Assembly: GCA_964407215.1 (NCBI GenBank)
Contig: CAYOUT010000003.1
Location: 34,700-98,699, forward strand
Direction of reading: 5' to 3'
DNA from: an uncultured Anaerolineales bacterium
GTDB lineage: Bacteria; Chloroflexota; Anaerolineae; UBA1429
Length of the DNA stretch: 64,000 nucleotides
Part shown: positions 17,313 to 54,557 of the stretch, piece by piece
How the letters are laid out: the number at the start of each line of letters is the position of its first letter
Position numbering within the stretch: position 1 is the stretch's first letter
Position numbers and translations under genes: made by a program
The notes under the pieces: model-generated
The model's database searches: none
Told to the model about the DNA's origin: nothing
The model's input: the letters and a program-made list of their open reading frames with translations, nothing else

Positions 17313-18374
17313 ATGAATACCTATGAACGCATGAAAGCGATGTACGAGCACCGCGAGGCCGATCGGGTGCCCATTGTGGAGACCCCCTGGAGCTCGACTC
17401 TCGAGCGCTGGGAACAGGAAGGTCTCCCCTCCGGTGTGGACTGGGAGGAGTATCTGGGGCTGGATAGACTGGTGACTATACACGCAGATAACAGTCCGCG
17501 TTATCCAGTGCGCGTCTTGGAGCAGACCGACGACTATACGGTGACGACTTCTAGCTTTGGGGTTACCATGCGCAACTGGCGTCACGCTGGAGGGGTGCCC
17601 GAGTTTCTCGATTTCAAAGTAGTGGATCCCGATGCTTGGGCCAAGGCCAAGGAGCGTATGCAGCCCAGCCGCGACCGTGTGGATTGGGGGACGCTGCAAC
17701 GGAACTACAAGCTGTGGCGTGAGCAGGGAGTATGGATTAGCGCGGGGTTCTGGTTCGGCTTTGATGTCACCCACTCTTGGATGGTGGGCACAGAGCGCCT
17801 GTTGCTGGCGTTCGTAGAACGCCCCGAGTGGGTGGCTGACATGATCAACCATATGCTCGAACTGGATATCGCGCTGTTCGATATGGTGTGGGAGGCCGGC
17901 TATCACTTTGACGAGATCCGCTGGCCTGACGATCTGGGGTACAAGAACAACCAGTTTATTTCGCCGAGAATGTACCGCAACCTGATCAAACCGGCTCACA
18001 AGCGCGCCGCTGAGTGGGCCCGCGCCAAAGGCGTCCACGTGGCACTGCATTCCTGCGGCGATGTGAACCCCTTTATTCCCGACTTTGTTGAGGCGGGCAT
18101 CGAGATGCTCAACCCTCTGGAGGTCAAGGCTGGCATGGATCCGCTGGCGCTCAAAGCGCGATACGGAGAGGGGCTGGCCTTGCACGGGGGGCTGAATGCG
18201 GTGCTCTATGAGCGCCCCGAGGAGCTCTGGGACGAAATGAGACGAGTGATCCCAGACATGAAGGCGCGAGGGGGCTATGTCATCAGTTCGGACCACTCAG
18301 TGCCCGATAGCGTCAGCCTGGACGAGTTCCGGCACTTTGTTCGGCTGGCCAAGGCGCTCGGAAGCTACGAGTAA
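17313..18374 (+). CDS. uroporphyrinogen decarboxylase (URO-D)-family protein, paralog 1
   Basis: The URO-D/MtaA fold is suggested by the length and by the conserved C-terminal SSDHSVP-type region. The start is at MNTYERMK. Confidence 0.6.
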   Translation: MNTYERMKAMYEHREADRVPIVETPWSSTLERWEQEGLPSGVDWEEYLGLDRLVTIHADNSPRYPVRVLEQTDDYTVTTSSFGVTMRNWRHAGGVPEFLDFKVVDPDAWAKAKERMQPSRDRVDWGTLQRNYKLWREQGVWISAGFWFGFDVTHSWMVGTERLLLAFVERPEWVADMINHMLELDIALFDMVWEAGYHFDEIRWPDDLGYKNNQFISPRMYRNLIKPAHKRAAEWARAKGVHVALHSCGDVNPFIPDFVEAGIEMLNPLEVKAGMDPLALKARYGEGLALHGGLNAVLYERPEELWDEMRRVIPDMKARGGYVISSDHSVPDSVSLDEFRHFVRLAKALGSYE

Positions 18375-18661
18375 GGTTTCTGTGGGGCGGCGCAGGTCTT
18401 GGCGCAGCCGTTAAAGTGAGATCAATCAGCACCGAAGGCCATGCGGAGGAGAAAAGCGTAGCGATTGAGGATAAGAGTACGCTGGATGCGCGTGGTGAAC
18501 CAAGCCGTGGGCGGGCATCAGCACGCTCTGGCCTCTCGCCACCAGTCTTTGTAACGGGATACCGCACCAGTGGCCTAACGATATCAGACGCTGCCCACGG
18601 CGCTCTTTCCCCCATCGCCCGGTCGTGATGCGCTTGAGGTTGTGTGAACCCTCGCACCTGA

Positions 18662-18687
18662 GAGGCCCTGGCTCAAGCCAGGGCCTC
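18662..18687. terminator. perfect 11-bp hairpin (GAGGCCCTGGC-tcaa-GCCAGGGCCTC) between convergent genes
   Basis: The hairpin is seen directly in the sequence. It lies 44 nt downstream of the minus-strand stop at 18733. The U-tract is weak on both strands. Confidence 0.35.
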
Positions 18688-18732
18688 GAGCTTTCCACGG
18701 CATAAAGTGCGTAAGATGCTCCCTGGGTTCGC

Positions 18733-21700
18733 CTACCGCCAGCCGCAGAGAGCCTCTACATGGGCGGCAGATCCATCGCGTAGCCAGCCGTCAAGCTGAG
18801 CTTGCTCCTTGAGCTGTTGGCCCCGCAGCCGGGGCACAATAACGAAGCGGCAATCAAAACGAGACAGCGCCGTTATATCGCCCCACAGCTTCTCAAACTG
18901 AGCCACGGGATAGATGTCCTCTTGCCCCTGACCCCAGCGTTTCTTGACCTCTTTGAGTGTGATGTAGGTGGGCATTCGGGCGGCGACACCCCTTATGGCC
19001 GAGGAGACCCTATCCTCATGCGACAGATCTTTGTGCGTGAGGCCAAAGGCACCGAGCAGCTTGTCGATATCCAACCACATAGTGTTCGAGTTATAGTAAG
19101 AAAGGCGAAACTCGCCCTCCTCCCTCGGCATGGCCAAGCCCTCTAGCAACCGCAAGCGCCCATCGATGCGCGCCAAGCCACCTCCGCGGTCCTCAAGCCT
19201 GCGAGTGATCACCTCGGCGGTGAACGCAGCGCCCTGGCTGATGTGCCACCCGAGCAGGGAGGGATCCACGTCTGCGCCCAGGGTGTCGATGTTGTGTATC
19301 ATCAGGTAACGCAGGTTGGGCCGCTCGTCCAGTAGCCGTAGTAGCACACCGTTGCGCAGCATGTTGGGCACCTCGAACCAATGGCCCACCGGGTGGAGGC
19401 ATTGGACTGGCAAGTTGTCCGTGTAATCGCCCCCCTCTCCGGCCTGCCTGGCCCAGCCTATCAACGCCGAGTGAAAGCTCTCGCGCACCTTTTGCGCTTG
19501 TTCATCCAGGAGCTGCTGCGGCATCTCCTCCCAGGCGAAACGCAGGTCACGGGCCATGGGGATCAAGCGCAGGCCTATAGCCCGCCCGGGCGAGAGGAGC
19601 AATGGCCCCGGATAACCGTAATGCTCTTGGCGTTGGAGGTAGGCTCTGATCGGCTCGTGGGTCAGGTAGCTCGTGGTGACAACGTGTGGGATGCTGAGAC
19701 CACACAGGCGGCCCATGCGCTGGCTCTTGGCCAAGTGGCATTCGATAAAGGAGCGGTGTGCACCACCCAGTTTGCAAAACGGATGCAGAGCCTTGACCAC
19801 ACCAGCGCCCTGAGTCCAGCGGCTTCCGACACCACCGGCCAACGACACCACGGCCAAGGCGCCGGATGCCAAGGCGTCCATCCCAATATCGCGGTACTCC
19901 TGGGGCAAGCCGCGACTGGCGTCTTGTACGTCATCGTCGGAGACGTCACGAATGTCGGTGCTGAGGGGCAGCCTGTTCTGCGCAAGCCCAATGCGGCCGT
20001 TACGCAGGTCGGCACGGATTTGCTCATGCTGAAGCGGATCAAAGCCGTTCTGCTCCAAGAGTTCTTGCAGGCTTTGACTACCCGCCTCGGCGCGCTCGGG
20101 ACGCGGTAGAATCGCGTCAAAGAGGGTCTGCACGGTACCGGCCAGCTCGGGCTTGGTGCGGCATGCCGCCCCAAAAAGATCCAGCTCCGTGCGACGGAGG
20201 GGTGGGAGCTGCAATCGTTCCTGTCGCAAGAGTTGCGGTAGGATGAGAGTGTAATACCCGGGTGGCATCAGCGCCTCGTCGCCTCGGAAGAGATCGGCCC
20301 ACGTCCCCCGCTCGTTAATGGAAAAATCATACACTACAGGCTCCATGGCAAAAGGCAGGGCGTGCTCCAAGGCGCGCTTGCCTTCGCTCATGATCTCCTG
20401 TAAGCGTTCCTGCGCCTTTTCCTTGTGTGCGGGGTCGAAAATAAAGCCCATTCCTCCACCGGACATACCGCCCAGCATCCAGAACCCCCAGAAATCGCCC
20501 CTGAACTCGCCTTCAACCCGTTGGATGAGCGTCTCCGTGTAAAGATTGCTGGCCCAAGGGATAATGGCCTGTATAGGCTCTCTAAAGTTGTGTGTGGTGG
20601 ACGCGCCGATGGCGCGCACGTCGCCAGCTCTCAAGTGGGCGAGGATGCGGTCTAGGGTGAGGCAAGCTTCTTGGCGCGCTCGCCACTCGGCCTCAGAGCG
20701 CAACAGATACTTTTCCGTCACCATCTCCAAGATGGGACCGACGTTCTGAGCCATCCCGCCATGGACCAGCACTAGGCTGTCTTGCAAGTGTTGACGCGTG
20801 TCTGGAGATACCTCTTCGGGGCCCAGGATCGTGTGGCTGGGCAATAGACGCCCGTGACTAATACTGTGCTCCGGGTCACCCTCCTGGGCCGACTCCCCTT
20901 GGATCAGCTTGATGCCGGGCCACACTCCGCCCGAGTCCTGCCAACCCCCGCCCGAGCCGGCAAGCCACTCTCCGAGGATCGCCCGTGCGGCAACGAGGCG
21001 TCTTTCGTGGTTCTCTAGCGGCCCCACGAGGCGTCGCGCCTGCCCCGTGGCGCGCATGCACACAGTGATGAGGGCAGCGAGAAGGCTGGTAGAGACCGCC
21101 AGTCGCGAGCCCTTTGGGATGTTTTTCACGTTACTCACCAGCTCGAGCCCCCGCCCGGGGCCGGCCATACGCGCCAAGAGGTCGGCCAAGCTCTCACCGG
21201 AGCCCTCTATTCCCGGGGGCACCAAGCCCGATGCGATGATTGCAGCTTTGAGAAGCCCCAGGTAGTCTCTGGCATAGTCAAACACTGTGGCCAAATCTGT
21301 GATATCCGTCGTCACGCCAAGATCCACGCTGGCCAATCGCAAAATCGGCTCGTCGATAACGCGTATATAGGCCTCAACGGGGGGCCGCGGTGATGAATCT
21401 CTGTTCCGCACCCCCAAATCGATGGATATATTCAGTACGCGGGCCCCTTGGGGGTAATCCATCCCCAGGAAAAAGATGTCGCTCCATCCGCTATGGGTGA
21501 GGTCCATGCGTACCGGTGTGGATTCTCTCAGGAGGGGGTAGAGGCCATCATCTGTGCGCTGAAGGAGATCACTATGAATGCGCAAAGGCTGATCGGCGGG
21601 GTGGCCCATACGGAACATCCACTGGTTCCCGCTCACAGAGCGGACGCTGCGGCGCACCTGGTCGGCCAGGGTCTGGAAGCCGAGGCTGTGATAACCCGCG

Positions 21701-22053
21701 GCGAGCGCGCTGGCCAGCCCATCGGTAGGACCTTCCTCCCTTTGTTTGCCCAAGAACAGATCGATCGCCTCCTCGAAACGTCGTCGTAGCAGAAAAGAGT
21801 ACCCATCAAAAGGGAGCAGCCCTCGCATGCGTAGGCCCGGTTTGCTGGGTAGGTAGAACCGGTAGATGGCGTAGAGGAAAAAAGACGCTCTCACACGCTG
21901 ATACAGGTTGTCACAGGATCGACGAAAACGGTCCAGAGTATCGCACTCTGCGAGCAAGTCGCCCAGGCTGGCCGAGCGGCAGAATCCATCCAACGAACGA
22001 TCGCGCACTGTCGGGTCGGGCGAGGTGATGAGCCTGACGAGCTGCCCTGTCAT
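18733..22053 (-). CDS. 1106-aa multidomain protein: N-terminal region of unknown function + GHMP-family sugar-1-kinase (fucokinase/HddA-like) + C-terminal UDPGP-family sugar-1-phosphate nucleotidyltransferase
   Basis: The kinase part shows motifs [21 protein letters not shown] (GHMP motif 2-like), [11 protein letters not shown] and [17 protein letters not shown] (GHMP motif 3-like). The C-terminal part shows [21 protein letters not shown] and [17 protein letters not shown], which are UDPGP-like signatures. The start overlaps the upstream gene's stop by 4 nt. Confidence 0.65.
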
Positions 22054-22919: not shown

Positions 22920-22939
22920 AGAATGCCCTCGCATTGGAC

Positions 22940-25367: not shown

Positions 25368-25639
25368 GGATTCGACCTCATTGAGATTGCGTATTGGTTC
25401 GATCGGCTGGAATATGACACAACCTTGCGTTCTGCGCAAGGCGAACAATAGGCCTGTGAAGCTGTACCATCTGTATACCGATGTCGGGCGCGGTACGGCG
25501 GTCCGGCTAATCGCAAGAGGCTCGGCTGCACAAGGCATCCCATAGTTTTGGTGCAGTTCGTGTGGACACAGGTCGCCATAAGGCGAGCATAGTCAAGGCC
25601 CAGTCGTCTGCCCGTTTTGACGCCCCAGACCTTTCGTGC

Positions 25640-25858
25640 CATAATACACAAGGTGCTAAGGTCCATAGGGCCCAATTGAAAACAGTTCTCCGAACTGCAC
25701 GGCCTAAAGAACCAGTCCATGGTGTGCAGTCGGTGCCGCGGATTCCGCGGCCGACGGTATGGGTGGAAACGCCCATGCCCCCCATGTTTGGAAAGGAGAA
25801 CCCGGCTCGGCGCACTCTTGTGCCGGCGTTCTCTGCGAACGCCGGTTTTCTTTTTTGT
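25640..25858 (+). ncRNA. structured leader upstream of the Moco operon. I read it as a candidate Moco/Tuco riboswitch with a terminator/antiterminator expression platform.
   Basis: There are hairpins at GCCGCGG-att-CCGCGGC and ATGGGTG-GAAA-CGCCCAT. A GGAAAGGAG segment is present. CGGCGCAC...GTGCCGGCG is a possible antiterminator that shares GCCGGCG with the terminator's 5' arm. Confidence 0.35.
25823..25858 (+). terminator. intrinsic terminator (GCCGGCGTTC-tctgc-GAACGCCGG followed by TTTTCTTTTTTGT) located 20 nt before mog/moaB
   Basis: A perfect 9-10 bp GC-rich stem is followed by a 12-nt T-rich tract. Sitting immediately upstream of a start codon, it looks like an attenuator. Confidence 0.6.
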
Positions 25859-41482: not shown

Positions 41483-42772
41483 ATGAGCAAGGGCAAGCTA
41501 AAAACGGCAGATACGGCTTGGTGGGTTCACGATCGGCTTGGGATGTTTATCCACTGGGGGCTGTATGCCTTACCCGCACGCCACGAGTGGATACAGAGCA
41601 TGGAGCGCATCACGGAAGAGAACTATCGCAAATACTTTGATCATTTCGATCCCGACCTATACGACCCCAAGGCTTGGGCGCGTGCAGCGCGGGAAGCTGG
41701 TATGCGCTATTTCGTCATCACCACCAAACACCACGAGGGCTTCTGCCTGTGGGATTCGCAGCAGACCGACTACAAAGCGACCAACACGCCCTACGGCAGG
41801 GACCTGTTGCGGCCGATGGTCGAGGCGTTCAGAGCCGAGGGTCTGCGTGTGGGCTTTTACCACTCTCTCATCGACTGGCACCACCCCGACTATCCAGTGG
41901 ATCGCGTACACCCCATGCGAGACGACGCCGAATTCCGCGAGCGGACGCGTGGCCGCGATGTGGCTCGCTACGCCGCATACTTGGAGGCCCAGGTACGAGA
42001 GCTTCTCACACAGTACGGCGAGATCGACCTGATCTTTTACGATTTCTCTTTCCCGGGAGAGGATGGCAAAGGGCGTGACGACTGGCAATCGGAAAAGCTG
42101 CTCGCGTTGACGCGCGAGCTGCAACCGGGGATCATCGTCAACGACCGTCTTGATCTGCTGGACGTCCCCGGCGGTTGGGATTACCGCACGCCGGAGCAGG
42201 TGATGGTGCGCGAGGGGCTCAAGGTAGATGGTAAGCCCGTTCTCTGGGAGACTTGCCAAACCTTCTCCGGCAGTTGGGGCTACCACCGCGACGAGGCCAC
42301 CTGGAAGAGCGTAGATCAGCTCCTGCTGCTACTGATCGACACGGTGAGCAAAGGGGGCAACCTGTTGCTTAACGTGGGACCTACCGCACGCGGCGAGTTC
42401 GACGACCGCGCCCTAGATCGGTTGGAGGGCATGGGCGCTTGGATGCGGCGCCACGGGCGCGCTATCTATGGCTGTACGCCGGCCCCGTCCGAGTTCGTCA
42501 CACCACAGGACTGTCGTCTCACCTACAACCCCGAGACGCGGCGCCTCTACGTGCACGTGTTGAACTGGCCCATCCAAGAGCTGCATCTGGATGGTTTGGC
42601 TGGCAAGGTGGCCTATGCCCAGCTGCTCAACGACGCGTCCGAGGTTCACTTTCGTGAACAAACTGAGCCACAGGCTCCTTGGGAGGGTGGAGGCAAGGAC
42701 ACTCTGACCCTCCGTCTGCCAGTGACGCGTCCCAATGTGGCCGTGCCCGTCGTCGAACTGTTCCTCAAGTAG
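41483..42772 (+). CDS. alpha-L-fucosidase (GH29)
   Basis: FIHWGLYA, ITTKHHEGFCLWDS and the YHSLIDWHHPDY motifs are typical of GH29. Confidence 0.85.
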   Translation: MSKGKLKTADTAWWVHDRLGMFIHWGLYALPARHEWIQSMERITEENYRKYFDHFDPDLYDPKAWARAAREAGMRYFVITTKHHEGFCLWDSQQTDYKATNTPYGRDLLRPMVEAFRAEGLRVGFYHSLIDWHHPDYPVDRVHPMRDDAEFRERTRGRDVARYAAYLEAQVRELLTQYGEIDLIFYDFSFPGEDGKGRDDWQSEKLLALTRELQPGIIVNDRLDLLDVPGGWDYRTPEQVMVREGLKVDGKPVLWETCQTFSGSWGYHRDEATWKSVDQLLLLLIDTVSKGGNLLLNVGPTARGEFDDRALDRLEGMGAWMRRHGRAIYGCTPAPSEFVTPQDCRLTYNPETRRLYVHVLNWPIQELHLDGLAGKVAYAQLLNDASEVHFREQTEPQAPWEGGGKDTLTLRLPVTRPNVAVPVVELFLK

Positions 42773-42925: not shown

Positions 42926-44227
42926 CTAGCTATACGTCGGCAGGTAATCCCCGTGCGCCTCGATCAGATCATCGCACAACGACACGATCTCATCCAGTGT
43001 CAGTTCGGCCGCGGTGTGTGGGTCGAGCATGGCCGCCTGGTAGATGTGCTCCTTCTTTCTCGTCAGGGCCGCTTGGATCGTCAGCTCGTGAACGTTCACG
43101 TTGGTTCTTGTGAGCGCCGCGCACTGGGCGGGCAGGTCGCCTACGTAGGTGGGAGTGATGCCGTTACGGTCGGCCACACACATCACCTCGACGCAGCAGT
43201 CGTAGGGCAGGTTAGTGATCAGGCTCTTGTTAAGCACGTTGCCACCGAACAGGAACGGTGTGCCGGTGAGTACGGCGTCGAAAATGAACGAGGCGTACTC
43301 GTGGCCACGCTCGTGCTCAATGGGATGGTCCGCTAGCAACTCCTCGCGCATTTTCTCCCATCCCTTGATCTGCGCGATACAGCGTCGAGGATACTCGTCC
43401 AGCGGGATGTGAAAGCGCTCGATCAGTTCGGGAGCTCTGCCCTTGATGAACCAGGGCACATACTCGGCGCTATGCTCGCTCGATTCGGTGACATAGTAAC
43501 CGAACCACTTCATGATCTCGAAACGCACGGCGTCCTTGTGTTTGTACTCGGGGAGCTCAGCACGCCGTTTGATCTCGGGGTACAGGTCCTCTCCGTGGCG
43601 GGTGATCTCTAGCAGCCAACCCTGATGGTTAACGCCTGCGATCTTCCATTGCAGGTCATCGGTGGGCAGGTCCAATTCGTGACACAAATGGCTGGCGCAG
43701 CCCTGCACGCTGTGGCATAGACCCACAGTACGTATGCTACTGGCTTTGAGAATGGCGCCAGTAAGCATCGCCATAGGGTTGCTATAGCTCAGCATCAGAA
43801 CGTCCGGGGCGACCTCCTCCATAATGCGGCAATAGTCCAACATCACTGGGATGGTGCGCAAGCCACGAAAGATGCCACCGATCCCCAGCGTATCGGCGAT
43901 AGTCTGGCGTAGCCCGTACTTTTTCGGAACCTCAAAGTCGATGACGGTGCTTGGCTCATAGCCGCCCACTTGGATGGCGTTCACGACAAAGTCGGCGCCT
44001 TCCAGGGCTTTGGCGGCGTCCTGTGCCAGATAGGCCTCTACCGTGGCGTTTGCGTGTAGGGTGCGGTTGATGTTCTTGAGCATCACCTCCGACACGCGTA
44101 GGCGGTCCGGATCGATATCGATAAGGGTGATGTGCGCATCTCGCAACGAATCCACATGTAGGCAATCGCCCAACACGCTTTTGGCGAATACCGTGCTGCC
44201 GGCGCCGAGAAAGCTGATCTTGGCCAC
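42926..44227 (-). CDS. GH4-family NAD+/Mn2+-dependent alpha-galactosidase/alpha-glucosidase
   Basis: VAKISFLGAGSTVF is the GH4 Rossmann N-terminus. The true start is a GTG at 44227, preceded by a perfect AGGAGG Shine-Dalgarno; the track ATG at 44272 is an over-extension. Confidence 0.8.
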   Translation of the reverse strand: MAKISFLGAGSTVFAKSVLGDCLHVDSLRDAHITLIDIDPDRLRVSEVMLKNINRTLHANATVEAYLAQDAAKALEGADFVVNAIQVGGYEPSTVIDFEVPKKYGLRQTIADTLGIGGIFRGLRTIPVMLDYCRIMEEVAPDVLMLSYSNPMAMLTGAILKASSIRTVGLCHSVQGCASHLCHELDLPTDDLQWKIAGVNHQGWLLEITRHGEDLYPEIKRRAELPEYKHKDAVRFEIMKWFGYYVTESSEHSAEYVPWFIKGRAPELIERFHIPLDEYPRRCIAQIKGWEKMREELLADHPIEHERGHEYASFIFDAVLTGTPFLFGGNVLNKSLITNLPYDCCVEVMCVADRNGITPTYVGDLPAQCAALTRTNVNVHELTIQAALTRKKEHIYQAAMLDPHTAAELTLDEIVSLCDDLIEAHGDYLPTYS

Positions 44228-44317
44228 GGCTGACCTCCTCTTGGGGTAATGCTCGGATGGTAGACGTTGCAAAGCCGCGCGTCAAGCAGAGCGGCGATGT
44301 GCAAATTGGTGTTTGTC

Positions 44318-47612
<3,295 letters not shown>

Positions 47613-47636
47613 GCTTGGGTGAAGGAGTGTTCTAGC

Positions 47637-48962
47637 ATGGTGATCTTTCAACGTGAGATACCTGTACGTTACGATGTGGATGTGTTCGTGGCTGGCGGCG
47701 GACCTGCGGGGGTTGCGGCTGCTCTGGCGGCGGCGCGCCATGGCGCCAGCGTTTTTCTGGCCGAAGGTCACACCTGTTTTGGTGGAATGGGCACTGCCGG
47801 CCTGGTGCCGGCGTTTATGCAGTTTGGCGATGGAGTACACTTTTTGGCCGGAGGCATCGGGCGCGAAGTTTACGATCGTCTCTGGCGGGCGAACGGTGTT
47901 GGCCCCGACGACCGCTATGATGATCCGTACGGCCGTGCGGCCATCCGCACCGAGGTGCTCAAACGCGTCTACGACGAGATGATGGCAGAGTCGAGCGCAG
48001 AGTTTGCTTTCCAGACGCAAATAGTGGCTGTAGAGCATGTGGACGGCCGGATGGATGCGGCGATCTGCGCCGCCAAGAGCGGCCTGTACGCCGTCAAAGC
48101 GAGGGTGTTCGTGGACTGTACGGGCGACGGCGACCTGTGTGCCTGGGCGGACGCGCCTTATGAGAAGGGCGACGCAGAAAGCAACATGATGCCCGGTACT
48201 GTCTGCAGCCTGTGGGCCGATATCGACTGGGATACTGTGCGCGTGTCCGGCTTGAGCCCACAAAAAGCCGTCTTGCAGGCTGTGGAGGATGGAATCTTTA
48301 CCCATCCCGATCGCCATCTACCGGGTATGTGGCGCGTGGGGCGGCGCGCTGGCGGGGGCAATATCGGCCATACCTACGGCGTGGACGCCACCGACGAACG
48401 TTCGCTAACTCGGGCGCTCCTCTGGGGCCGCCAGGTGGTGATGGAGTACGAGCGTTTCTACAAGCAGTACCTGCGAGGCTATGAGCGTATGGAGCTCATG
48501 GCTACGGGCTCGCTACACGGCACTCGCGAATCGCGGCGCATCCTGGGAGATTACGTCTTGAGCCTGGACGACTTTACCAGTCAGGCGGTGTTCGAGGATG
48601 AGATCGGGCGCTACGCCTACCCGGTGGATATCCACGCCTCCAAGCCGGATGCCGCCTCCTTTGCACAGTTTGAGAAAGAGATGGGCACCTATCGCTACGA
48701 TCCGGGCGAGAGCTACGGGATCCCCTATCGCATCCTGTTGCCGCAAGGCCTGCGGAACGTGCTTGTGGCCGGGCGTTGCGTTAGCTCGGATCGCTACCTG
48801 CAAGGGTCGATTCGCGTCATGCCCGGCTGCTATATCACAGGCCAGGCCGCAGGGTTAGCTGCAGCATTGGCCTCCCGACAGGAGGGTGACACGCGGGCGG
48901 TCTCTGTGGAGGAACTACAGGCCGGCCTACGTGCCATGGGGGCGTACCTGCCCAATAGCTAG
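47637..48962 (+). CDS. FAD-dependent oxidoreductase (GidA/FixC-like FAD_oxidored family)
   Basis: DVFVAGGGPAGVAAALAAARHG is a GxGxxG dinucleotide-binding motif. An AAGGAG Shine-Dalgarno precedes the ATG at 47637. Confidence 0.65.
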   Translation: MVIFQREIPVRYDVDVFVAGGGPAGVAAALAAARHGASVFLAEGHTCFGGMGTAGLVPAFMQFGDGVHFLAGGIGREVYDRLWRANGVGPDDRYDDPYGRAAIRTEVLKRVYDEMMAESSAEFAFQTQIVAVEHVDGRMDAAICAAKSGLYAVKARVFVDCTGDGDLCAWADAPYEKGDAESNMMPGTVCSLWADIDWDTVRVSGLSPQKAVLQAVEDGIFTHPDRHLPGMWRVGRRAGGGNIGHTYGVDATDERSLTRALLWGRQVVMEYERFYKQYLRGYERMELMATGSLHGTRESRRILGDYVLSLDDFTSQAVFEDEIGRYAYPVDIHASKPDAASFAQFEKEMGTYRYDPGESYGIPYRILLPQGLRNVLVAGRCVSSDRYLQGSIRVMPGCYITGQAAGLAAALASRQEGDTRAVSVEELQAGLRAMGAYLPNS

Positions 48963-49021: not shown

Positions 49022-50176
49022 ATGGATCGACCAAAGGACGGGGTGTATGCTCCAGTGGCGCGAGACACTATGGTGGAGCCGGCGCGTCGGCTGCGAGATG
49101 TCTACGCCATTACGCCGGAGGAGCCGCTCATCAAACGCGAGTTCGGCTTCTATTCGCTGGAAGCGTGGCGTGAGCAGGGGATGCCTCAGGATGTGCCCCT
49201 GCCAGAGCTGTTCGACTATGACGAGCCGGGTATCTACCACCTGGGGCAACTCGGTTGGTGCGAGGCGGCTTTTTGTCCCGATTTCGAGGAGAAGGTGCTG
49301 GAGGATCGGGGCGATCACGAGGTAGTGCAAGATCTCGCCGGGCGGCACGTGTTGTATTTCAAAGGGCGGCGTGACGGCTTTATGCCCGAGTATTTGGATC
49401 ACCCCGTGAAAGATATGCACACTTGGGAACGAGACGCCAAGTGGCGTTTGGACCCGGCTAGCCCGGAGCGCTATGACGACTTGGAGTCTCGTATGGAGCG
49501 CGCCCGTGTAGAGGCCGCCAAAGGGATGATCGTATCGCAGAACCTGATCGGTGGCTACATGTACCTGCGCAGCCTTATCGGTCCCAGCGAGCTCCTCTAT
49601 GCATTTTACGATATGCCGGACGTGATTCACGAGTGTATGCGGGCATGGTTCGAACTGGCGGACGCAGTCATCGCGCGGCATCAGCAATATGTCACACTGG
49701 ACGAACTATATCTCGCCGAGGATATCTGCTACAACGCTGGCTTGCTCATCTCGCCCGACATGATGCGCGCGTTCTTGTTCCCGTATTACCAGCAACTCAT
49801 CTCTAATATCAAGGCGAGACAGCTCGACCCAGAGCGCCATCTCTATATTCAGGTCGACACCGACGGCCATGCCCCCGCAGCGATTCCTGCCTATCGTGAG
49901 ATCGGCATGGATGTCATGAGCCCCTTCGAGGTGGCGTCGGGTTGTGATGTGGTGGCCCTGGGTCGGCGGTACCCCGATCTGGTGATCTTGGGCGGCATCG
50001 ACAAGCGCGTTTTAGCCTCTGGTCGCAAAGCTATCGACCGCCACCTCGAATATATTTTGCCCACCATGAAAGCTCGCGGGGGTTATATCCCCACATGTGA
50101 TCACGGCGTACCGGCCGAGGTGCCCTACGAAGACTATTTGTACTACCGCAGACGCTGTGTTGAACTCGGGAGCTAA
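49022..50176 (+). CDS. URO-D-family protein, paralog 2
   Basis: The C-terminal half aligns with paralogs 1 and 3 (GGIDKRVL..., ARGGYIPTCDHGVP). An AAGGAG Shine-Dalgarno is present. Confidence 0.55.
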   Translation: MDRPKDGVYAPVARDTMVEPARRLRDVYAITPEEPLIKREFGFYSLEAWREQGMPQDVPLPELFDYDEPGIYHLGQLGWCEAAFCPDFEEKVLEDRGDHEVVQDLAGRHVLYFKGRRDGFMPEYLDHPVKDMHTWERDAKWRLDPASPERYDDLESRMERARVEAAKGMIVSQNLIGGYMYLRSLIGPSELLYAFYDMPDVIHECMRAWFELADAVIARHQQYVTLDELYLAEDICYNAGLLISPDMMRAFLFPYYQQLISNIKARQLDPERHLYIQVDTDGHAPAAIPAYREIGMDVMSPFEVASGCDVVALGRRYPDLVILGGIDKRVLASGRKAIDRHLEYILPTMKARGGYIPTCDHGVPAEVPYEDYLYYRRRCVELGS

Positions 50177-50213: not shown

Positions 50214-52193
50214 ATGAGCCGCTACACTGGGCCTTATTTGGGCGCCGCCTATTACCCTGAGGATTGGCCTCTGGAGCAGGTCGATGAGGACATCGCTCTC
50301 ATGCGCGACGCGGGTATGACCGTGATGCGCATCGGCGAGTTCGCCTGGAGCCGTATGGAGCCCAAGGAGGGCGTGTATACGCTGGATTGGCTCCACTTGG
50401 TGGTGGACAAGCTGGGGGAAGCGGGCATCGCCACCATCATGGGCACTCCCACCTGCACGCCGCCGGCCTGGCTTGCCGAACGCTATCCCGAGATTCTGGC
50501 GGTGGATGACCAAGGACAACGCGCACAGCACGGAGCGCGCCGTCATGCATGCCCCAACAATCCGGTCTATCGCGATTACTGCGCTCGTATCGTCACTCGC
50601 CTGGCAGAGGCGTTCGGGCGGGATGATAACGTCATCGGCTGGCAGATCGATAACGAGCTATACCCTTACGGTGCGAGAGGATGCTGCTGCCCCGTCTGTC
50701 ACGCGCGCTTCATCGAGGCGATGGGGGCACAGTTCGGCGATATCGGAGCCTTGAACGGGGCCTGGGGAACGGATTTGTGGAGCCAGACCTACCAATCCTT
50801 TAGCCAGTTGCCGATTCCTCGTGTCGATGTATGGCATCACCCCTCGTTGCTCACGGCCTGGATGGCCTTCCAGTCTGACTCGTATGTGGCCTTCTCGGAC
50901 CACCAGGCGGATATCTTGCACAGCTTGGTGCAGCAGCCGGTGGGCACAGATATGATGCCTTTTGGCGGGTTGAACTACCACAAGGTCCACCGAAAACTGG
51001 ATGTCGTGCAGTTCAACCATTACAACAGCATGGAGAACCTGTGGCAGGCAGCGTTCTGGATGGATTTATGCAGACCGCTGAAAGAGACACCCTTTTGGAA
51101 TACGGAGACTGCCACCTGCTGGAATGGCTCCACGACGGCCATGGGCTACAAGGAGCCGGGGTTCTGTCGGGCCAATTCCTGGCTCCCCATCGCACTGGGC
51201 GGTGAGGCCAACTTGTATTGGCTTTGGCGTGCGCACTGGAGCGGCCAGGAGCTGATGCACGGTTCGGTGGTCTCTAGCTGTGGGCGGCCCTTACACATTC
51301 TGGGAGAGGTGCAAGAGATAGCGGCTGGCTATCGGCAAGCAGCCGAGTTCATTCGGGGGACGAGGCCCACGCGATCTGGCCTGGCCGCCCACTTTTCGGG
51401 GTTGGCTTGGTGGATGTTCGAATTTCAGCCCATGGTGCGGGGCTTTAGCTATGGGGAAAAACTGCTGAACGCCTTCTATCGGCCAGTGCAACAGGCGCAA
51501 CTCCGACCCGACATCATCGACCCCGCCGCGTCGCTGGAGCCCTATCAGTTGGTCTGCTCACCTTTCCTGCCGACTCTGGACGAAGCGAGTCTGCGCGAGC
51601 GGTTGCTCGCTTGGATCGAGGCGGGCGGCACGTGGGTGGCGGGACCTCTTACCGATGTGCGTGACCTCCATGCGACGAAATACCGGCATGCGCCCTACGG
51701 CTCACTGGAAGACTGGGCGGGCGTGCGCTGTCGATACCAGATACCGGGCGACCCTCGCGAGTTTGGCTTACGCTGGGAGGATGGCTCTGTCTCGCACGGC
51801 TCGGTGTGGTACGACGGACTGGAGCTACAGGATGGCGAGGCGCTGGCTCTGTACACGGAGGGTCCTCTCGAGGGGCTGGCGGCTGCCGTACGACGTCGCA
51901 TTGGGCGAGGACAGATCGTGTTGCTGGGCACTATGCCAACGCCGGAGGACCTTCGGGACTTGCTGATGCGCTTGGGGCGAGAGGCGGGCGTGGCCCCCAC
52001 TACCGAGGCTACGTCGAACCTATTGGTAGTGCCACGCGAGGGACCCGCGGGCCGAGGCGTGATAGTGCTCGAGCTGGATCATCGCGAAGGAGCGCTCACC
52101 CTGCTCGCCTCCGCCACCGATCTGCTCACCGGTGCGCGATATGATGGACGGGTGCAGGTTCCCCCGTACGGCGTCATGGTTCTCGCGTGCTGA
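50214..52193 (+). CDS. beta-galactosidase (GH42) with a CxxC/Cys4 zinc site
   Basis: GAAYYPEDW, the WQIDNE catalytic acid and the CCCPVCH zinc motif are characteristic of GH42. Confidence 0.85.
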   Translation: MSRYTGPYLGAAYYPEDWPLEQVDEDIALMRDAGMTVMRIGEFAWSRMEPKEGVYTLDWLHLVVDKLGEAGIATIMGTPTCTPPAWLAERYPEILAVDDQGQRAQHGARRHACPNNPVYRDYCARIVTRLAEAFGRDDNVIGWQIDNELYPYGARGCCCPVCHARFIEAMGAQFGDIGALNGAWGTDLWSQTYQSFSQLPIPRVDVWHHPSLLTAWMAFQSDSYVAFSDHQADILHSLVQQPVGTDMMPFGGLNYHKVHRKLDVVQFNHYNSMENLWQAAFWMDLCRPLKETPFWNTETATCWNGSTTAMGYKEPGFCRANSWLPIALGGEANLYWLWRAHWSGQELMHGSVVSSCGRPLHILGEVQEIAAGYRQAAEFIRGTRPTRSGLAAHFSGLAWWMFEFQPMVRGFSYGEKLLNAFYRPVQQAQLRPDIIDPAASLEPYQLVCSPFLPTLDEASLRERLLAWIEAGGTWVAGPLTDVRDLHATKYRHAPYGSLEDWAGVRCRYQIPGDPREFGLRWEDGSVSHGSVWYDGLELQDGEALALYTEGPLEGLAAAVRRRIGRGQIVLLGTMPTPEDLRDLLMRLGREAGVAPTTEATSNLLVVPREGPAGRGVIVLELDHREGALTLLASATDLLTGARYDGRVQVPPYGVMVLAC

Positions 52194-52261
52194 GGTCTTG
52201 TGTTAACAGCGGCGTAGAGTCTGCGCTGCACAACGACACGATGTCAAACGAAAGGGATGCT

Positions 52262-53422
52262 ATGAAGATCACCGATATCAAGACCTACCCTGTATGGGTG
52301 GGGCAGCGCAACCAACTCGTCGTCAAAGTAGAGACGGACGAAGGAATCGTCGGGTGGGGCGAATCGGGGCTCTCGGGCCGCGAGTTGGCCGTTATCGGGG
52401 CGATCCGCCACTATCGCGAGCTGCTCATCGGCAAGGATCCCATGCGCAGAGGGGCCTTGTGGCAAGAGATGTACCGCAGCCAGTACTATGAGGGCGGGCG
52501 GGTGCTCACAGCGGCCATCTCGGCTCTTGACACAGCGTGCTATGATATCACCGGAAAGGCTCTGGGCGTGCCCGTGTACCAACTGCTGGGCGGCAAGCAG
52601 CGCGATCTCGTGCCCTGTTTCGCCTCGACGCCCGCACCCATGGGGCCCAGACTTATCGAAGACATCAAGTTGCTAGTGGACAAAGGCTGGAACGTGATCC
52701 GCACTGGCATCGGCCATCGACACCATCCGGAGGACCCACGTATCTACGAGCCGCGCGAGTCGATCGCCATAACGGCCGAGTGGCTGGTGAAGGCGCGCGA
52801 GGAGGTGGGGTTAGAGCCGGTGCTGGGCATCGATTACCACCATCGCCTCAGCGTGGCTGAGGCCGCATCCTTTTGCCAGCGGATGCCCTCTGGCACCCTC
52901 GACTTTCTCGAGGAGCCGATCCGCGATGAATCCCCCGAGGCTTACGAAGCGCTGCGCAAGATGGTGGATGTGCCCTTTGCCATCGGTGAAGAGTTCTCGA
53001 GCAAATGGGCGTTCCTGCCCTATATCGAACGCGGCATCGCTAACTTTGCCCGGATCGATGTGGGCAACGTGGGAGGGCTCACGGAAGCCATGAAAGTGGC
53101 GGGCTGGGCTGAGGCACACTATATCGATCTGATGCCTCACAACCCGCTCGGGCCCATCTGCACGGCAGCAACCATCCACTTGGCGGCTGCGGTGGCCAAC
53201 TTTTCGTGGCTGGAGGTGCGTAACTCGCCCACCGAGGACCTGGGCTTTGACGACCCCGAATGGTTCCCCGTGCAGCCGCGCATGGAGGGCCCCATGTATA
53301 TCGTCCCTGACGCGCCCGGACTCGGGGTGGAGTTCAACGAGGAGCGCGCCAAGGAAGAAGAGTTCCGTTTTAACCCGACGTGGATGCTTCACCGCCGCGA
53401 CGGTTCCTACACTAACGCCTAG
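52262..53422 (+). CDS. enolase-superfamily D-galactonate/D-mannonate dehydratase-like enzyme
   Basis: MKITDIKTYPV...GWGE is the capping domain. The barrel is KxK-less, of the ManD/GalD type. Confidence 0.7.
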   Translation: MKITDIKTYPVWVGQRNQLVVKVETDEGIVGWGESGLSGRELAVIGAIRHYRELLIGKDPMRRGALWQEMYRSQYYEGGRVLTAAISALDTACYDITGKALGVPVYQLLGGKQRDLVPCFASTPAPMGPRLIEDIKLLVDKGWNVIRTGIGHRHHPEDPRIYEPRESIAITAEWLVKAREEVGLEPVLGIDYHHRLSVAEAASFCQRMPSGTLDFLEEPIRDESPEAYEALRKMVDVPFAIGEEFSSKWAFLPYIERGIANFARIDVGNVGGLTEAMKVAGWAEAHYIDLMPHNPLGPICTAATIHLAAAVANFSWLEVRNSPTEDLGFDDPEWFPVQPRMEGPMYIVPDAPGLGVEFNEERAKEEEFRFNPTWMLHRRDGSYTNA

Positions 53423-53468
53423 AGCACGGCACAGCACGCCGAACAGATTGCTCTGAGGAGATGGGCGC

Positions 53469-54557
53469 ATGAAGAGTCTTTTTGATGTCGAGGTCTCGCC
53501 TAACTGGGAGGCTCTGGTGGCCTGTATTCTACGCCAGGGCACACCGCAGCGGGTGCACTATATCGAGTTGTTCCTGGACGAGGAGGTCCAGGTGGCAATC
53601 TGCGACAAGTTCGATCTCTTGATGGACCTCGAACCCGATGATCCCTATTGGGATCTGAAGCGGCAGATCATTTTGCAGCGCTTTCTAGGTTACGACTATG
53701 TGCGGGCGGGGCTGGAAAATATGGATATGCCGCTCCACCGCACCACGATATCGGACACGGCCGAGCTGGGTCGCAAAGGCGGCCGCAGCTACATGAACGA
53801 GCACCAAGGCCCCATCACCACCTGGGAAGAGTTCGAGGTCTACCCCTGGCCCGACGCACACCGAGCGACGACGAGGGCATTGGAATGGTACGAAGCCAAC
53901 TTGCCCGACGACATGTGTATCATAGGCAGTGGCGGCTTTGGCCATTTCGCCGAGTATCTCACCTGGCTGATGGGCTATGAATCCCTGTGTTACGCGCTTT
54001 ACGATCAGCCCGATCTGGTGCGGGCTATCGCCGACCGCTTATTGGAGATGTATCGAGTGGCGCTGAAGCGCATCCTGGCTTTCGATCGTGTCAAGATCAT
54101 CTGGGGCAGCGATGATATGGGTTTTCGCTCCGCCACGCTCATCAGTCCCGATGCGACCCGCCGGTACATTCTCCCCGGTCACAAGCTGATGGCGCAGATG
54201 TCTCACAGTGCGGGGCGCCCTTATCTGTTGCACTCTTGCGGAAACCTTACAGAGATTATGGAGGATCTATTGGAGGATGTGCGGATCGATGCCAGGCACT
54301 CCTTCGAGGACACCATCGAACCGGTCACTGACGCCAAACGGCGTTATGGCGATCGCGTGGCCCTGCTGGGTGGTATCGACGTCGATTTTATGTGTCGCGC
54401 CAGTGAGGAGGCTCTACGGCAGCGAGTGCGTGAGATGCTGGACGTGTGCATGCCCGGCGGTGGTTACTGCTTGGGCAGTGGCAACAGCGTTGCTAACTAT
54501 ATCCCGTTGGCCAACTATTTGGCCATGCTGGATGAGGGGCGGCGGTACGTGCTCTGA
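53469..54557 (+). CDS. URO-D-family protein, paralog 3
   Basis: It is similar in length and C-terminal blocks (LLGGIDVDFM, MPGGGYCLGSGNS) to paralogs 1 and 2. Confidence 0.6.
   Translation: MKSLFDVEVSPNWEALVACILRQGTPQRVHYIELFLDEEVQVAICDKFDLLMDLEPDDPYWDLKRQIILQRFLGYDYVRAGLENMDMPLHRTTISDTAELGRKGGRSYMNEHQGPITTWEEFEVYPWPDAHRATTRALEWYEANLPDDMCIIGSGGFGHFAEYLTWLMGYESLCYALYDQPDLVRAIADRLLEMYRVALKRILAFDRVKIIWGSDDMGFRSATLISPDATRRYILPGHKLMAQMSHSAGRPYLLHSCGNLTEIMEDLLEDVRIDARHSFEDTIEPVTDAKRRYGDRVALLGGIDVDFMCRASEEALRQRVREMLDVCMPGGGYCLGSGNSVANYIPLANYLAMLDEGRRYVL

Follow-up and report, generated by a model that had tools for sequence, protein, structure and literature searches.

The window, a stretch of 64,000 nucleotides from an uncultured Anaerolineales bacterium, carries three forward-strand genes whose products have the uroporphyrinogen decarboxylase (UroD) fold: U1 (17313..18374), U2 (49022..50176), and U3 (53469..54557). 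All three open reading frames lie where an earlier note had placed them, a Shine-Dalgarno-like sequence backs each start (GGGAGCAGGA, AAGGAG, and GAGGAG), and the gene calls of the 302,277-bp source contig agree (353, 384, and 362 aa). Each passes the gathering score of Pfam PF01208 URO-D (23.9 bits; U1: 67.2 bits, E = 1.7e-18; U2: 40.3 bits, E = 2.6e-10; U3: 69.0 bits, E = 5e-19), the matched part of the model being confined to its C-terminal half to two-thirds. The AlphaFold2 models of U1 and U2 (pLDDT 92 and 86) find their best PDB matches in MtaA 4AY7 and HemE structures (E = 1e-10 to 1e-12, 12–17% identity), the top Foldseek match being MtaA 4AY7 for U1 (E = 3.5e-12, TM 0.67–0.70) and human UROD for U2 (E = 1.6e-10); MetE is a weaker match of both (E = 1e-4 to 1e-6). 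U3 was aligned to MtaA 4AY7 by sequence (E = 4.4e-4). The three paralogs of UroD/MtaA fold that the earlier note had announced are therefore real. Their motifs are WPDDLGYK (17922-17945), HSCG (18048-18059), PLEVKAG (18114-18134), and SDHSVP (18288-18305) in U1; KGRRDGFMPEY (49361-49393), AEDICYN (49715-49735), VDTDG (49853-49867), PFEVASG (49922-49942), and PTCDHGVP (50090-50113) in U2; and GSDDMGFR (54105-54128), LHSCG (54228-54242), HSFED (54297-54311), and GGGYCLGSGNSVA (54456-54494) in U3.

The genes around them include all the glycosidases and sugar-acid genes named earlier, i.e., a GH5-like gene by U1, and GH2, PF12831, GH42, and enolase-family dehydratase genes around U2 and U3. U1 starts 43 nt past a same-strand gene for a weakly GH5-like/DUF6298 protein of 533 aa (15668..17269, +; Pfam Cellulase E = 2.8e-7, DUF6298 E = 3e-5) that has no NCBIfam match. 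Divergent from this pair is an enolase-superfamily (MR_MLE) gene resembling acid-sugar dehydratases (14397..15605, −; Pfam MR_MLE_C and MR_MLE_N), with weak NCBIfam matches to ManD and galactonate dehydratases. U2 and U3 belong to an apparent operon, all on the forward strand, in the order GH2 LacZ-type β-galactosidase (44403..47612; Pfam Glyco_hydro_2_C E = 6e-106, Bgal_small_N, LacZ_4), PF12831 FAD-dependent oxidoreductase (47619..48962; Pfam FAD_oxidored E = 1.2e-100), U2, GH42 β-galactosidase (50214..52193; Pfam Glyco_hydro_42 E = 7.2e-101), enolase-superfamily dehydratase (52187..53422; Pfam MR_MLE_C and MR_MLE_N), and U3, with intergenic gaps of 6, 59, 37, −7 (an overlap), and 46 nt. The dehydratase is nearest to galactonate dehydratase (NCBIfam 249 bits, below the 311-bit cut-off). 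Two consensus matches flank this string. The sigma-70-like promoter match (44318..44345, +; 10/12 hexamer matches, extended TG) lies 58 nt before GH2 begins and is the best of a region where such sites are no more numerous than expected from shuffling; the other, where U3 ends, is a weak terminator-like hairpin with a T-rich tail (54536..54565, +). Upstream are a GH29 α-L-fucosidase (41483..42772, +; Pfam Alpha_L_fucos E = 1.2e-88) and, divergent from the GH2 operon, a GH4 α-galactosidase (42926..44272, −; Pfam GH4; NCBIfam PRK15076 634 bits vs. a 486-bit cut-off). Downstream, on the reverse strand, are a 487-aa protein with an enolase-superfamily C-terminal domain only (54626..56089; Pfam MR_MLE_C E = 9.5e-12) and no NCBIfam match, a GFO/IDH/MocA sugar dehydrogenase (56721..57893; Pfam), and a DHDPS/KDG-aldolase-family protein (57963..58901; Pfam DHDPS E = 3.9e-24, NCBIfam matches only weak). 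The reported lack of hem and corrinoid genes was confirmed: the Pfam scan of the 43 window ORFs returned neither hem genes nor a B12-binding protein, a six-frame search of the window found no MetH B12 domain, and Rfam found no cobalamin riboswitch there.

U1, U2, and U3 are only 25–27% identical to one another, and profile–profile comparison joins U1 to U2 over the full length (probability 99.8%) and U1 to U3 over the C-terminal 205 columns (99.4%). The C-terminal blocks thought to be common to all three do exist, but each occurs in two of the three: GGID in U2 and U3 (GGLN in U1), and ARGGY...DH.VP in U1 and U2 (PGGGY...GNSVA in U3). Word-index searches returned 3099 (U1), 5704 (U2), and 3647 (U3) homologues at E ≤ 1e-5, the best 120 being 61–80% identical and coming from many phyla, including Chloroflexota, Armatimonadota, and Planctomycetota. 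The U2 clade comprises 263 clusters at 50% identity (E ≤ 1e-30), all single-domain and about 360–400 aa long. In 15 of 80 U2 loci, another divergent UroD paralog is encoded less than 10 kb from U2, which fits a diversified enzyme family. Each of the three genes represents a separate, large, uncharacterised orphan family with thousands of members, for which we found no literature.

None of the three is a uroporphyrinogen decarboxylase. They share the UroD fold with HemE/UROD (human 1URO, B. subtilis 2INF, E. coli b3997), human UROD being the top structural match of U2, and the His of HemE "NLGHGI" aligns with that of "DH(S/G)VP" in U1 and U2. However, no family clusters inside bona fide HemE: the NCBIfam hemE model matches none of the three, the N-terminal substrate-binding motif RQAGR of HemE occurs in 0 of 97 family members, the catalytic Asp77/86 region is also absent, and hhalign links them to E. 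coli HemE at a probability of 1–21%. Identity to HemE is 12–16%, roughly 100 residues of U2 fall outside the Foldseek alignments to HemE, and there is no haem-pathway context. The earlier suggestion that these proteins decarboxylate uronic or sugar acids in the manner of HemE, with no cofactor, gains no direct support. The common fold, the many invariant Arg residues that could bind carboxylates, and the enolase-superfamily sugar-acid dehydratases adjoining all three genes in the window would favor it. Yet we consider it highly improbable, given the missing HemE residues and equivalog match. HemE chemistry depends on the electron sink of a pyrrole ring, and sugars contain no such ring. The conserved His/Cys/Glu or Asp/Asp/Glu clusters, which are of metal-ligand type, point to metal catalysis, whereas HemE is metal-free.

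These clusters are invariant sets of polar residues in segments aligning with the Zn-ligand segments of MtaA, the methylcobamide:coenzyme M methyltransferase of Methanosarcina mazei (4AY7/4AY8), which has the same (β/α)8 UroD fold, as does the MtaA/CmuA subfamily (TIGR01463). U1 has His246-x-Cys248, Glu270, and Asp327-His328; U3 has His255-x-Cys257, Glu280, and Asn339; and U2 has Asp279-x-Asp281, Glu303, and Asp360-His361. U1 and U3 align with MtaA over the H-x-C strand and the following Glu: LHICGNVNP and SVEEKIG of MtaA pair with LHSCGDVNP and PLEVKAG of U1, and the U3 alignment is similar, N339 facing the Cys of MtaA APGCG. In the ligand check proposed in the earlier note, three of four positions are kept in U1 and U3 (the last Cys giving way to Asp-His and Asn, respectively) and the site is replaced in U2, where His-x-Cys becomes Asp-x-Asp (D-T-D-G opposite H-S-C-G by hhalign). 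The D-x-D/E/D-H pattern of U2 is retained in 94 of 98 diverse representatives of its clade, and the single Cys of U1 is invariant across its family. In the U1 and U2 models the candidate ligands sit at or just past the C-terminal ends of predicted β-strands; both proteins also have a β-rich segment near the N-terminus that sets them apart from MtaA. Judging from the alignments, all three are predicted to bind a metal, with a candidate Zn-type site in U1 and U3 and, in U2, a candidate harder, carboxylate-rich site that would suit Mn, Mg, or Fe. The substrate may be small and anionic, as so many Arg and Lys residues are invariant. Ligand spacing in U1 (His-x-Cys, 21 residues, Glu, 56 residues, Asp-His) is similar to that of the MetE Zn site in T. 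maritima, His-x-Cys...Glu...Cys. The catalytic barrel of MetE (T. maritima 1XPG, S. mutans 3T0C) is a more distant member of the superfamily. It belongs to a double-barrel protein of some 750 aa, unlike the single barrels of about 360 aa here, which have a last ligand other than Cys, no folate or homocysteine context, and no match to Pfam Meth_synt.

The resemblance to MtaA raises the alternative that the three are MT1/MtaA-type methyltransferases in corrinoid-dependent O-demethylation of methylated sugars, with the corrinoid protein encoded elsewhere in the genome. In its favor, no solved structure comes nearer to U1 than MtaA, which is also the nearest match of U3 by sequence, and the retained Zn-ligand positions of both fit such a role. 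In Methanosarcina, mtaA is not always beside mtaCB, and algal and cyanobacterial glycans commonly contain methylated sugars. MtaA/CmuA models are also the best NCBIfam matches, but at 16–49 bits against cut-offs of 235–600 (U3: 48.6 bits, cut-off 235). With these scores, identity to MtaA of 12–17% (Foldseek alignments of U1 and U2), and 165 of 166 related loci lacking any B12-binding domain out to 10 kb, canonical MtaA can be rejected. The sole B12-domain match in the 2.0 Mb of the window plus 166 loci was a MetH-like gene 8 kb from U2 (locus L045), and no corrinoid partner was among the 25 most frequent neighbour Pfam families. The replaced ligands (the last Cys in U1 and U3, the whole site in U2) and the lack of a cobalamin riboswitch in the window also count against corrinoid chemistry, as does the occurrence of these families in Chthonomonas and Fimbriimonadaceae, lineages of aerobes. 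In addition, alkyl methyl ethers are not readily attacked by Co(I). Demethylation of this type, the other chemistry in the earlier note, is without direct support, and we regard it as very unlikely. The MtaA-like proteins known as Mlps are also bacterial UroD-superfamily members of unassigned role, found outside methanogens and often as several paralogs per cluster; their definition requires over 25% identity to a characterised CoM methyltransferase, and they are encoded with a corrinoid protein and its reductive activator (PMC10418091). U1 and U2 do not reach that level of identity, and no corrinoid protein lies near U1, U2, or U3.

Chloroflexota loci bear out the tie to sugar breakdown, whereas those of other phyla do not, so that the co-localization with glycosidases expected from the earlier note is conserved in part. 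Of 19 Chloroflexota U2 loci, 8 have GH2, GH42, GH4, GH29, or GH32 no more than two genes away, and the PF12831 flavoprotein occurs in 3. The GH2-FADox-U2-GH42 order recurs in L008 and L025, and we also found GH2-GH29-U2 (L006), U2-GH4 (L027 and L062), U2-GH32 (L040 and L044), and dehydratase-U2 (L038, where the ortholog of the dehydratase at 52187..53422 is syntenic with U2). These varied gene orders and five GH families exceed the expectation from inherited synteny. The dehydratase-U3-GFO module of L080, L125, L127, and L128, whose GFO genes are 66–69% identical to that at 56721..57893 and adjoin U3 orthologs, is not independent evidence because these loci are syntenic relatives of the window. 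Of the 10 U1 contexts, about half relate to carbohydrates. Next to U1 orthologs are CE15 and heparinase-like lyases in L004, GalK and GFO in L001, GH95, GH43, and PF12831 in the P0064 context, and, in L166, a PFK-like kinase plus a RuBisCO-like protein. Across all phyla, the contexts are heterogeneous: the most frequent neighbour family occurs in no more than 7–8 of 80 loci (U2 or U3), and 120 immediate neighbours of U2 include 159 Pfam families, 111 of U3 include 112.

Such diversity is compatible with a general, non-glycan function in a widespread housekeeping or stress process, e.g., metabolite repair, Zn-dependent alkylation of a thiol, or a link to metal homeostasis, the position among glycosidases being an arrangement specific to the Anaerolineae lineage with no mechanistic meaning. 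The cross-phylum identity of 63–80% is typical of a universal substrate; many orthologs have housekeeping neighbours (MutL, FtsK, GatB, ProRS, fab genes, UDG, FUR); U1 and U3 keep the His-x-Cys/Glu of the thiol-alkylating Zn enzymes MtaA and MetE; and metal transporter genes adjoin two U1 orthologs (CDF in L180, Zip in the P0064 context). Moreover, orthologs about 70% identical lie beside β-galactosidases, α-galactosidases, and fructan and fucose glycosidases, which argues against a sugar-specific role. This explanation is nevertheless rather unlikely in our estimate: the glycosidases at Chloroflexota U2 loci, the carbohydrate-related U1 contexts, and the tight operon spacing in the window stand against it, there is no enrichment of CDF or FUR genes around U2 or U3, and the Asp/Asp/Glu/His site of U2 is ill-suited to thiolate chemistry.

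We tentatively favor the reading, at a probability of about 0.42, that U1, U2, and U3 are stand-alone metal-dependent enzymes acting on sugar-derived metabolites and representing three ancient orphan subfamilies with no corrinoid partner. They would be cytoplasmic, single-domain (β/α)8-barrel enzymes of the UroD/MtaA/MetE superfamily, from separate, ancient, and strongly conserved subfamilies that function without a corrinoid protein. In the source genome they may have been recruited to galactoside/fucoside and sugar-acid catabolism, U2 and U3 through the apparent operon and U1 behind the GH5-like gene. Of the role in glycan catabolism envisaged earlier, the fold, the paralogy, and the glycosidase and sugar-acid setting stand, and the two chemistries proposed with it lack direct support. 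The likeliest chemistry would be Lewis-acid catalysis on a sugar acid, sugar lactone, or keto-sugar supplied by neighbouring enzymes. More speculatively, U3 might open the lactone, a step otherwise lacking between those of the GFO-type dehydrogenase and the dehydratase, an idea weakened by the SMP-30 and Amidohydro_2 lactonase-type genes that adjoin some U2 and U3 orthologs. U2, equally speculatively, might process the product of the adjacent flavoprotein. In oxidise-then-cleave sugar systems, such as 3-keto-glycoside and C-glycoside deglycosylation, an FAD/NAD oxidoreductase works with a metal-dependent TIM-barrel lyase. The known lyases have a xylose-isomerase-like fold (PF01261), unlike the UroD fold of U2. 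The analogy would be purely functional: PF12831 lies directly upstream of U2, an Asp/Asp/Glu/His TIM barrel, in the window, and likewise adjoins the U2 orthologs in L008, L025, and L051.

Three open reading frames on the plus strand, U1 (17313-18374), U2 (49022-50176), and U3 (53469-54557), encode paralogs of the uroporphyrinogen decarboxylase (UroD) fold, as the earlier note had proposed. They score 67.2, 40.3, and 69.0 bits, respectively, against PF01208 (gathering threshold 23.9), the model being covered only from positions about 122-151 to 335-345. Their start codons are backed by Shine-Dalgarno-like sequences and agree with the 353-, 384-, and 362-aa products on the 302-kb source contig; an N-terminal hydrophobic stretch is present in none of them. 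The predicted structures of U1 (AF2 pLDDT 92) and U2 (pLDDT 86) are UroD-type (beta/alpha)8 barrels, and their top Foldseek matches in the PDB were all MtaA (4AY7) or HemE, with MetE matching weakly and more distantly (TM 0.3-0.5). MetE is also distinguished by its double barrel and Meth_synt_1/2 domains, whereas the three paralogs are 353-384 aa long and match only PF01208 at E <= 0.01. Pairwise identity among them is 25-27%, and profile comparison linked U1 to U2 over the full length and U1 to U3 over the C-terminal 205 columns. A PDB sequence search with the U1 family profile returned no match at E <= 0.01, and single-sequence PDB searches returned marginal matches to MtaA or HemE only.

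Three chemistries are known in the UroD superfamily: decarboxylation without a metal, in haem synthesis; methyl transfer that depends on Zn and involves corrinoids or folate; and epoxide:CoM transfer. U1, U2, and U3 belong to Pfam URO-D in the broad sense and lack what defines both characterised branches. Their placement relative to HemE and MtaA was based on model scores, motifs, and profile comparisons, identities of 12-17% being too low for a reliable tree. HemE is recognised by an N-terminal, substrate-binding RQAGR motif (Arg37 and Arg41 in human UROD) and by the region of the catalytic Asp86. RQAGR occurs in no member of the U1, U2, or U3 families (0/33, 0/31, and 0/33, respectively). 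In hhalign comparisons with E. coli HemE the probabilities were 21, 1, and 5%, and the N-terminal catalytic region stayed outside every alignment; all models listed by the NCBIfam scan at E <= 0.01 were of the MtaA/CmuA type, none of them for hemE. Lacking both RQAGR and a hemE match, the paralogs lie outside bona fide HemE, and, in agreement with the earlier note, no hem gene was found among the 43 window ORFs scanned with Pfam. The HemE-like decarboxylase entertained in that note, which has HemE among the closest structural matches on its side, is very unlikely.

The other idea in that note, a corrinoid-dependent demethylase, fares little differently. The best scores against MtaA/CmuA-type NCBIfam models were 36, 15.9, and 48.6 bits for U1, U2, and U3, respectively, vs. 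cut-offs of 235-600. A nearby cognate corrinoid gene is usual, not obligatory, for MtaA, MtbA, and CmuA. We searched the window and 166 related loci (2.0 Mb in all, six-frame ORFs) by jackhmmer with the MetH B12 domain and the DxHxxG motif; the sole match was a MetH-like protein 8 kb from the U2 ortholog in locus L045. Within the window, neither Pfam (43 ORFs) nor the B12-domain search (six-frame ORFs) found a cobalamin-binding corrinoid protein, as the first reading of the sequence had reported, and Rfam found no cobalamin riboswitch, its only match being a Moco riboswitch (25676-25814). A corrinoid partner for the three paralogs was rejected on the B12-domain and Rfam scans. MtaA-like proteins (Mlp) are by definition >25% identical to a CoM methyltransferase of established function and clustered with genes for a corrinoid protein and its reductive activator (PMC10418091), whereas U1 and U2 are only 12-17% identical to MtaA (4AY7) and no corrinoid protein was found nearby. 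Partial conservation of the MtaA metal site, described below, speaks for demethylation, which we nevertheless regard as very unlikely.

Alignments of 31-33 sequences per family contain invariant polar motifs in all three families, and in the models of U1 and U2 these motifs lie at or immediately past predicted strand ends, where their residues would converge on one predicted site. An acidic motif (WPDD(M/L)GYK in U1, AEDICYN in U2, and GSDDMGFR in U3) is accompanied by four candidate ligands: the first two in H246-S-C248-G, D279-T-D281-G, and H255-S-C257-G, the third in PLE270VKAG, PFE303V, and H277-S-F-E280-D, and the fourth in D327-H328-S-V-P, D360-H361-G-V-P, and G-N339-S-V-A, in U1, U2, and U3, respectively. 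HMMER aligned LHSCG(D/N) and the next Glu of U1 and U3 to LHICGN and EE of MtaA, and N339 of U3 to the Cys of APGCG, the MtaA residues in question being its Zn ligands. The last Zn-ligand Cys position is occupied by Asp327-His328 in U1 and by Asn339 in U3. In U2, Asp-x-Asp stands opposite His-x-Cys (hhalign), and among 98 representatives of the U2 clade (full-length, 30-60% identity), 94 keep D-x-D/E/D-H. None of the three therefore has the complete His-x-Cys...Glu...Cys site of MtaA, MtbA, and CmuA. Of the residues that the earlier note had singled out, the MtaA ligands persist in part in U1 and U3 (H-x-C and Glu) and are replaced in U2, and the RQAGR of HemE is absent from all. C248 is the sole Cys of U1 and is invariant; invariant Arg and Lys are numerous in all three families, and U1 is Trp-rich (4.2%).

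Judged by these motifs, U1, U2, and U3 would be cytoplasmic metal-dependent enzymes with a substrate that is probably anionic. U1 and U3 appear to have a Zn-type site without the second thiolate, and U2 a putative hard-ligand metal site, in which carboxylates would take the place of the Zn-thiolate site; U2 carries a different, clade-wide predicted active-site signature. The most economical reading is that the three represent orphan subfamilies of UroD-fold enzymes that work alone and depend on a metal, and that may be deployed in cytoplasmic glycoside and sugar-acid catabolism in Chloroflexota, most clearly in the window.

The window has a G+C content of ~60%, its closest protein matches are in Anaerolineae/Chloroflexota MAGs, and its gene map (ORF listing and Pfam, 43 ORFs) is dominated by sugar catabolism. 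A rhamnose/fucose-type isomerase-aldolase island (916-7978) is followed by genes for GH123 (9768-11420), an enolase-superfamily protein (14397-15605, minus strand), and a weak GH5-like/DUF6298 protein (15668-17269), 43 nt after which U1 starts. Nucleotidyl-transferase genes, a Moco-synthesis island, and metY-metX-metW come after U1 and ahead of GH29 (41483-42772) and a GH4 alpha-galactosidase (42926-44272, minus strand; above the NCBIfam cut-off). U2 and U3 are the third and sixth members of a plus-strand string consisting of GH2 (44403-47612), a PF12831 FAD oxidoreductase (47619-48962), U2, GH42 (50214-52193), an enolase-superfamily dehydratase (52187-53422), and U3, with intergenic gaps of 6, 59, 37, -7, and 46 nt. 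The dehydratase is closest to galactonate dehydratase (NCBIfam, 249 bits, below cut-off). The region's best promoter-like site is placed 58 nt 5' of GH2, and a weak hairpin resembling a terminator at the U3 end, both by consensus match only. Beyond U3, the minus strand carries, according to Pfam, genes for a further enolase-superfamily protein, a GFO/IDH/MocA dehydrogenase, and an aldolase-like protein of the DHDPS family.

The Moco riboswitch (plus strand, 71.5 bits) heads a Moco-biosynthesis island (25562-29880) with a MogA-like gene, two MoeA paralogs, and MoaA; ORF 25562-26377, as called mechanically, encloses the riboswitch, so this gene must really start downstream of it. A 1106-aa protein (18733-22053, minus) has only a UDP-glucose-pyrophosphorylase-like piece recognised (residues 897-999), its first ~900 residues (~80%) being without family assignment, and is overlapped by 4 nt by an NTP_transferase gene (22050-22934, minus). 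A 699-aa fusion (33389-35488, minus) joins an N-terminal GFO/IDH/MocA dehydrogenase to a C-terminal aldo-keto reductase, an unusual two-oxidoreductase architecture, and adjoins an MFS transporter and a Zn-ADH. Between the sugar islands, 38211-41347 (plus) encodes an O-acetylhomoserine sulfhydrylase-type PLP enzyme, a MetX-like acyltransferase, and MetW, a methionine-biosynthesis trio; no methionine synthase was found in the window. Two ORFs with coding-like codon-position G+C have no Pfam match: one of 449 aa (11579-12928, plus), which comes after GH123 and has no NCBIfam match either, and one of 241 aa (59065-59790, minus). A CMAS-type SAM methyltransferase ORF (13012-14622, minus) overlaps, as mechanically called, the enolase-superfamily ORF 14397-15605 by 226 nt; its start is probably further downstream, since its Pfam matches begin only at residues 126 (DUF7884) and 233 (CMAS domain).

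All three families are large. Homologs at E <= 1e-5 numbered 3099, 5704, and 3647 for U1, U2, and U3, respectively, with the top listed ones at 61-80% identity and drawn from Chloroflexota, Armatimonadota, Planctomycetota, Verrucomicrobiota, Kiritimatiellota, Latescibacterota, Poribacteria, and Bacillota. Three families of thousands of sequences each, spread over many glycan-degrading phyla, fit none of the three chemistries of the superfamily. The listed homologs are named only 'uroporphyrinogen decarboxylase (family protein)' or 'hypothetical'; the former label is misleading, as it may falsely imply haem biosynthesis in MAG reconstructions, and would need correction. When each species was represented by a single genome, U2 relatives turned up in at least 533 species, the best 80 (65-76% identity) including Hydrogenedentota, Lentisphaerota, Limnochordia, and Spirochaetales; Chthonomonas calidirosea also has a U2 ortholog (L055). 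HMMER, run exhaustively with U2 as the query on 1.84 billion cluster representatives, returned 263 clusters at E <= 1e-30, 1060 at 1e-10, and 2802 at 0.001, so that the U2 clade contains at least 263 clusters (50% identity). The 150 U2 clusters listed include no fusion, and those of full length have a single domain and some 360-400 aa. Full-text literature searches for UroD-like proteins in connection with glycosidases, PULs, sulfatases, or the phyla that carry them found nothing on the U1, U2, or U3 families.

The earlier note expected co-localisation with CAZymes to be conserved, and this holds for U2 in Chloroflexota (a glycosidase in 8 of 19 loci, two genes either side), but not in other phyla, where neighbours are heterogeneous. 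The Chloroflexota U2 neighbours include GH2 (L006, L008, and L025), GH42 (L025 and L037), GH29 (L006), GH4 (L027 and L062), and GH32 (L040 and L044). PF12831 is directly 5' of U2 in three of the 19 loci (L008, L025, and L051), a second UroD paralog is present in five, and a dehydratase is near U2 in L038. Because gene orders differ among these loci, the association exceeds inherited synteny; that the partner GH specificities differ, though the orthologs are ~70% identical, argues against a sugar-specific role of U2. We also clustered by BLAST every ORF up to 10 kb away in 80 U2 and 80 U3 loci, and no family recurred in more than 7-8 of 80 loci for either (at most 7 for U2). Homologs of the window GH2, PF12831, and GH42 were found in only 3 of the 80 species genomes with U2; a neighbour cluster of 19 loci was rejected as a partner, being an antisense ORF of U2 and hence an ORF-picking artefact. 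Across all phyla, 120 immediate U2 neighbours match 159 Pfam families, most often URO-D (5), AraC-type regulators (5), response regulators (4), and xylose-isomerase-like TIM barrels (4), followed by PF12831 (3), Amidohydro_2 (3), and GH29, GH4, and GH32 (2 each).

The 111 immediate neighbours of U3 in 80 metagenome loci match 112 families, including sulfatase (5), MR_MLE (3), MutL (3), and SMP-30 lactonase, FtsK, UDG, and FUR (2 each). A module of dehydratase, U3, small membrane ORF, and GFO is found in four syntenic relatives of the window (L080, L125, L127, and L128), and a remnant of its small ORF persists in the window (56489-56662). The module is contiguous in these related genomes; in the window it is interrupted after U3 by a gene (54626-56089, minus) whose 487-aa product lacks an NCBIfam match and is recognised as an enolase-superfamily member by its C-terminal domain alone. 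For U1, five of 10 distinct contexts are carbohydrate-related, namely the window itself, L001 (GalK and GFO), L004 (CE15 and heparinase-like lyases), L166 (PFK-like kinase, RuBisCO-like protein, and sulfatase), and P0064 (GH95, GH43, and PF12831); the others are housekeeping or miscellaneous.

We consider it possible, with a probability of roughly two in five, that U1, U2, and U3 are enzymes acting on sugar-derived metabolites, in which case they would fill unassigned steps of carbohydrate catabolism in abundant, poorly studied bacteria. A general, non-glycan function is the less probable of the two and in our judgment doubtful, and this division reflects three points against a glycan-specific role: contexts in other phyla are heterogeneous and often housekeeping, conservation across phyla is very high, and dedicated lactonase-type genes lie near some orthologs. 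Under the sugar-metabolite reading, U3 might speculatively be the lactonase of the sugar-acid set in the window, as suggested by a GFO-type dehydrogenase, a galactonate-dehydratase-like enzyme, and a DHDPS-type aldolase without a lactonase, and by the position of U3 46 nt 3' of the dehydratase. The PF12831 flavoprotein precedes U2 in four genomes, and the two could, speculatively and by analogy, form an oxidise-then-transform unit; such pairs occur in keto-glycoside metabolism. It is rather unlikely that the three found new corrinoid-independent, metal-dependent carbohydrate-processing families on the UroD fold, catalysing glycan-catabolism steps without an assigned enzyme. If true, such steps would belong to cytoplasmic glycan catabolism in Chloroflexota, Armatimonadota, and PVC bacteria, for example conversion of the PF12831 product, with oxidation followed by cleavage or decarboxylation, the stripping of a common sugar decoration, or reactions of sugar-acid lactonases or isomerases of a new class. 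What ties the families to new carbohydrate chemistry is contextual evidence, restricted by lineage.

Some ortholog neighbourhoods deserve separate mention. A U1 ortholog with 71% identity, in L166 (5776-9502) and L167, lies on the same strand between a PFK-like kinase and a PF00016 protein (RuBisCO large-subunit family), probably a form-IV RuBisCO-like protein; a sulfatase comes next, and the whole resembles a sugar-acid phosphate pathway. In Planctomycetota contigs (L174-L177, 3948-7095), a gene for a 670-aa glycyl-radical enzyme (PFL-like and Gly_radical) is followed after 40 nt by a U3 ortholog with 74% identity, and the pair adjoins pyruvate:ferredoxin oxidoreductase genes. A zinc-homeostasis link for U1 is a weak lead: a CDF gene (Cation_efflux/ZT_dimer) lies 88 nt 3' of the U1 ortholog on the same strand in L180 (6159-7379), a Zip transporter two genes from it in P0064, and a FUR-family regulator with an ABC ATPase 5 kb from it in L169 (12816-15071); among the 160 U2 and U3 loci, CDF occurs in three and FUR in four, without enrichment. 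Of 80 U2 loci, 15 carry a further, divergent UroD paralog no more than 10 kb away, as do four of 80 U3 loci, in several phyla; clustered paralogs are found in L040, L042, L044, L051, L058, L080, L102, L124, L139, and L161, among others. The plasmid collection gave three matches only, distant and mostly unannotated; one 110-kb unannotated record from the gut Firmicute Subdoligranulum variabile (OY725838.1, around 65350-66333) matches U1 at five places (~26% identity) and contains a paralog-rich region of distant UroD-like genes.
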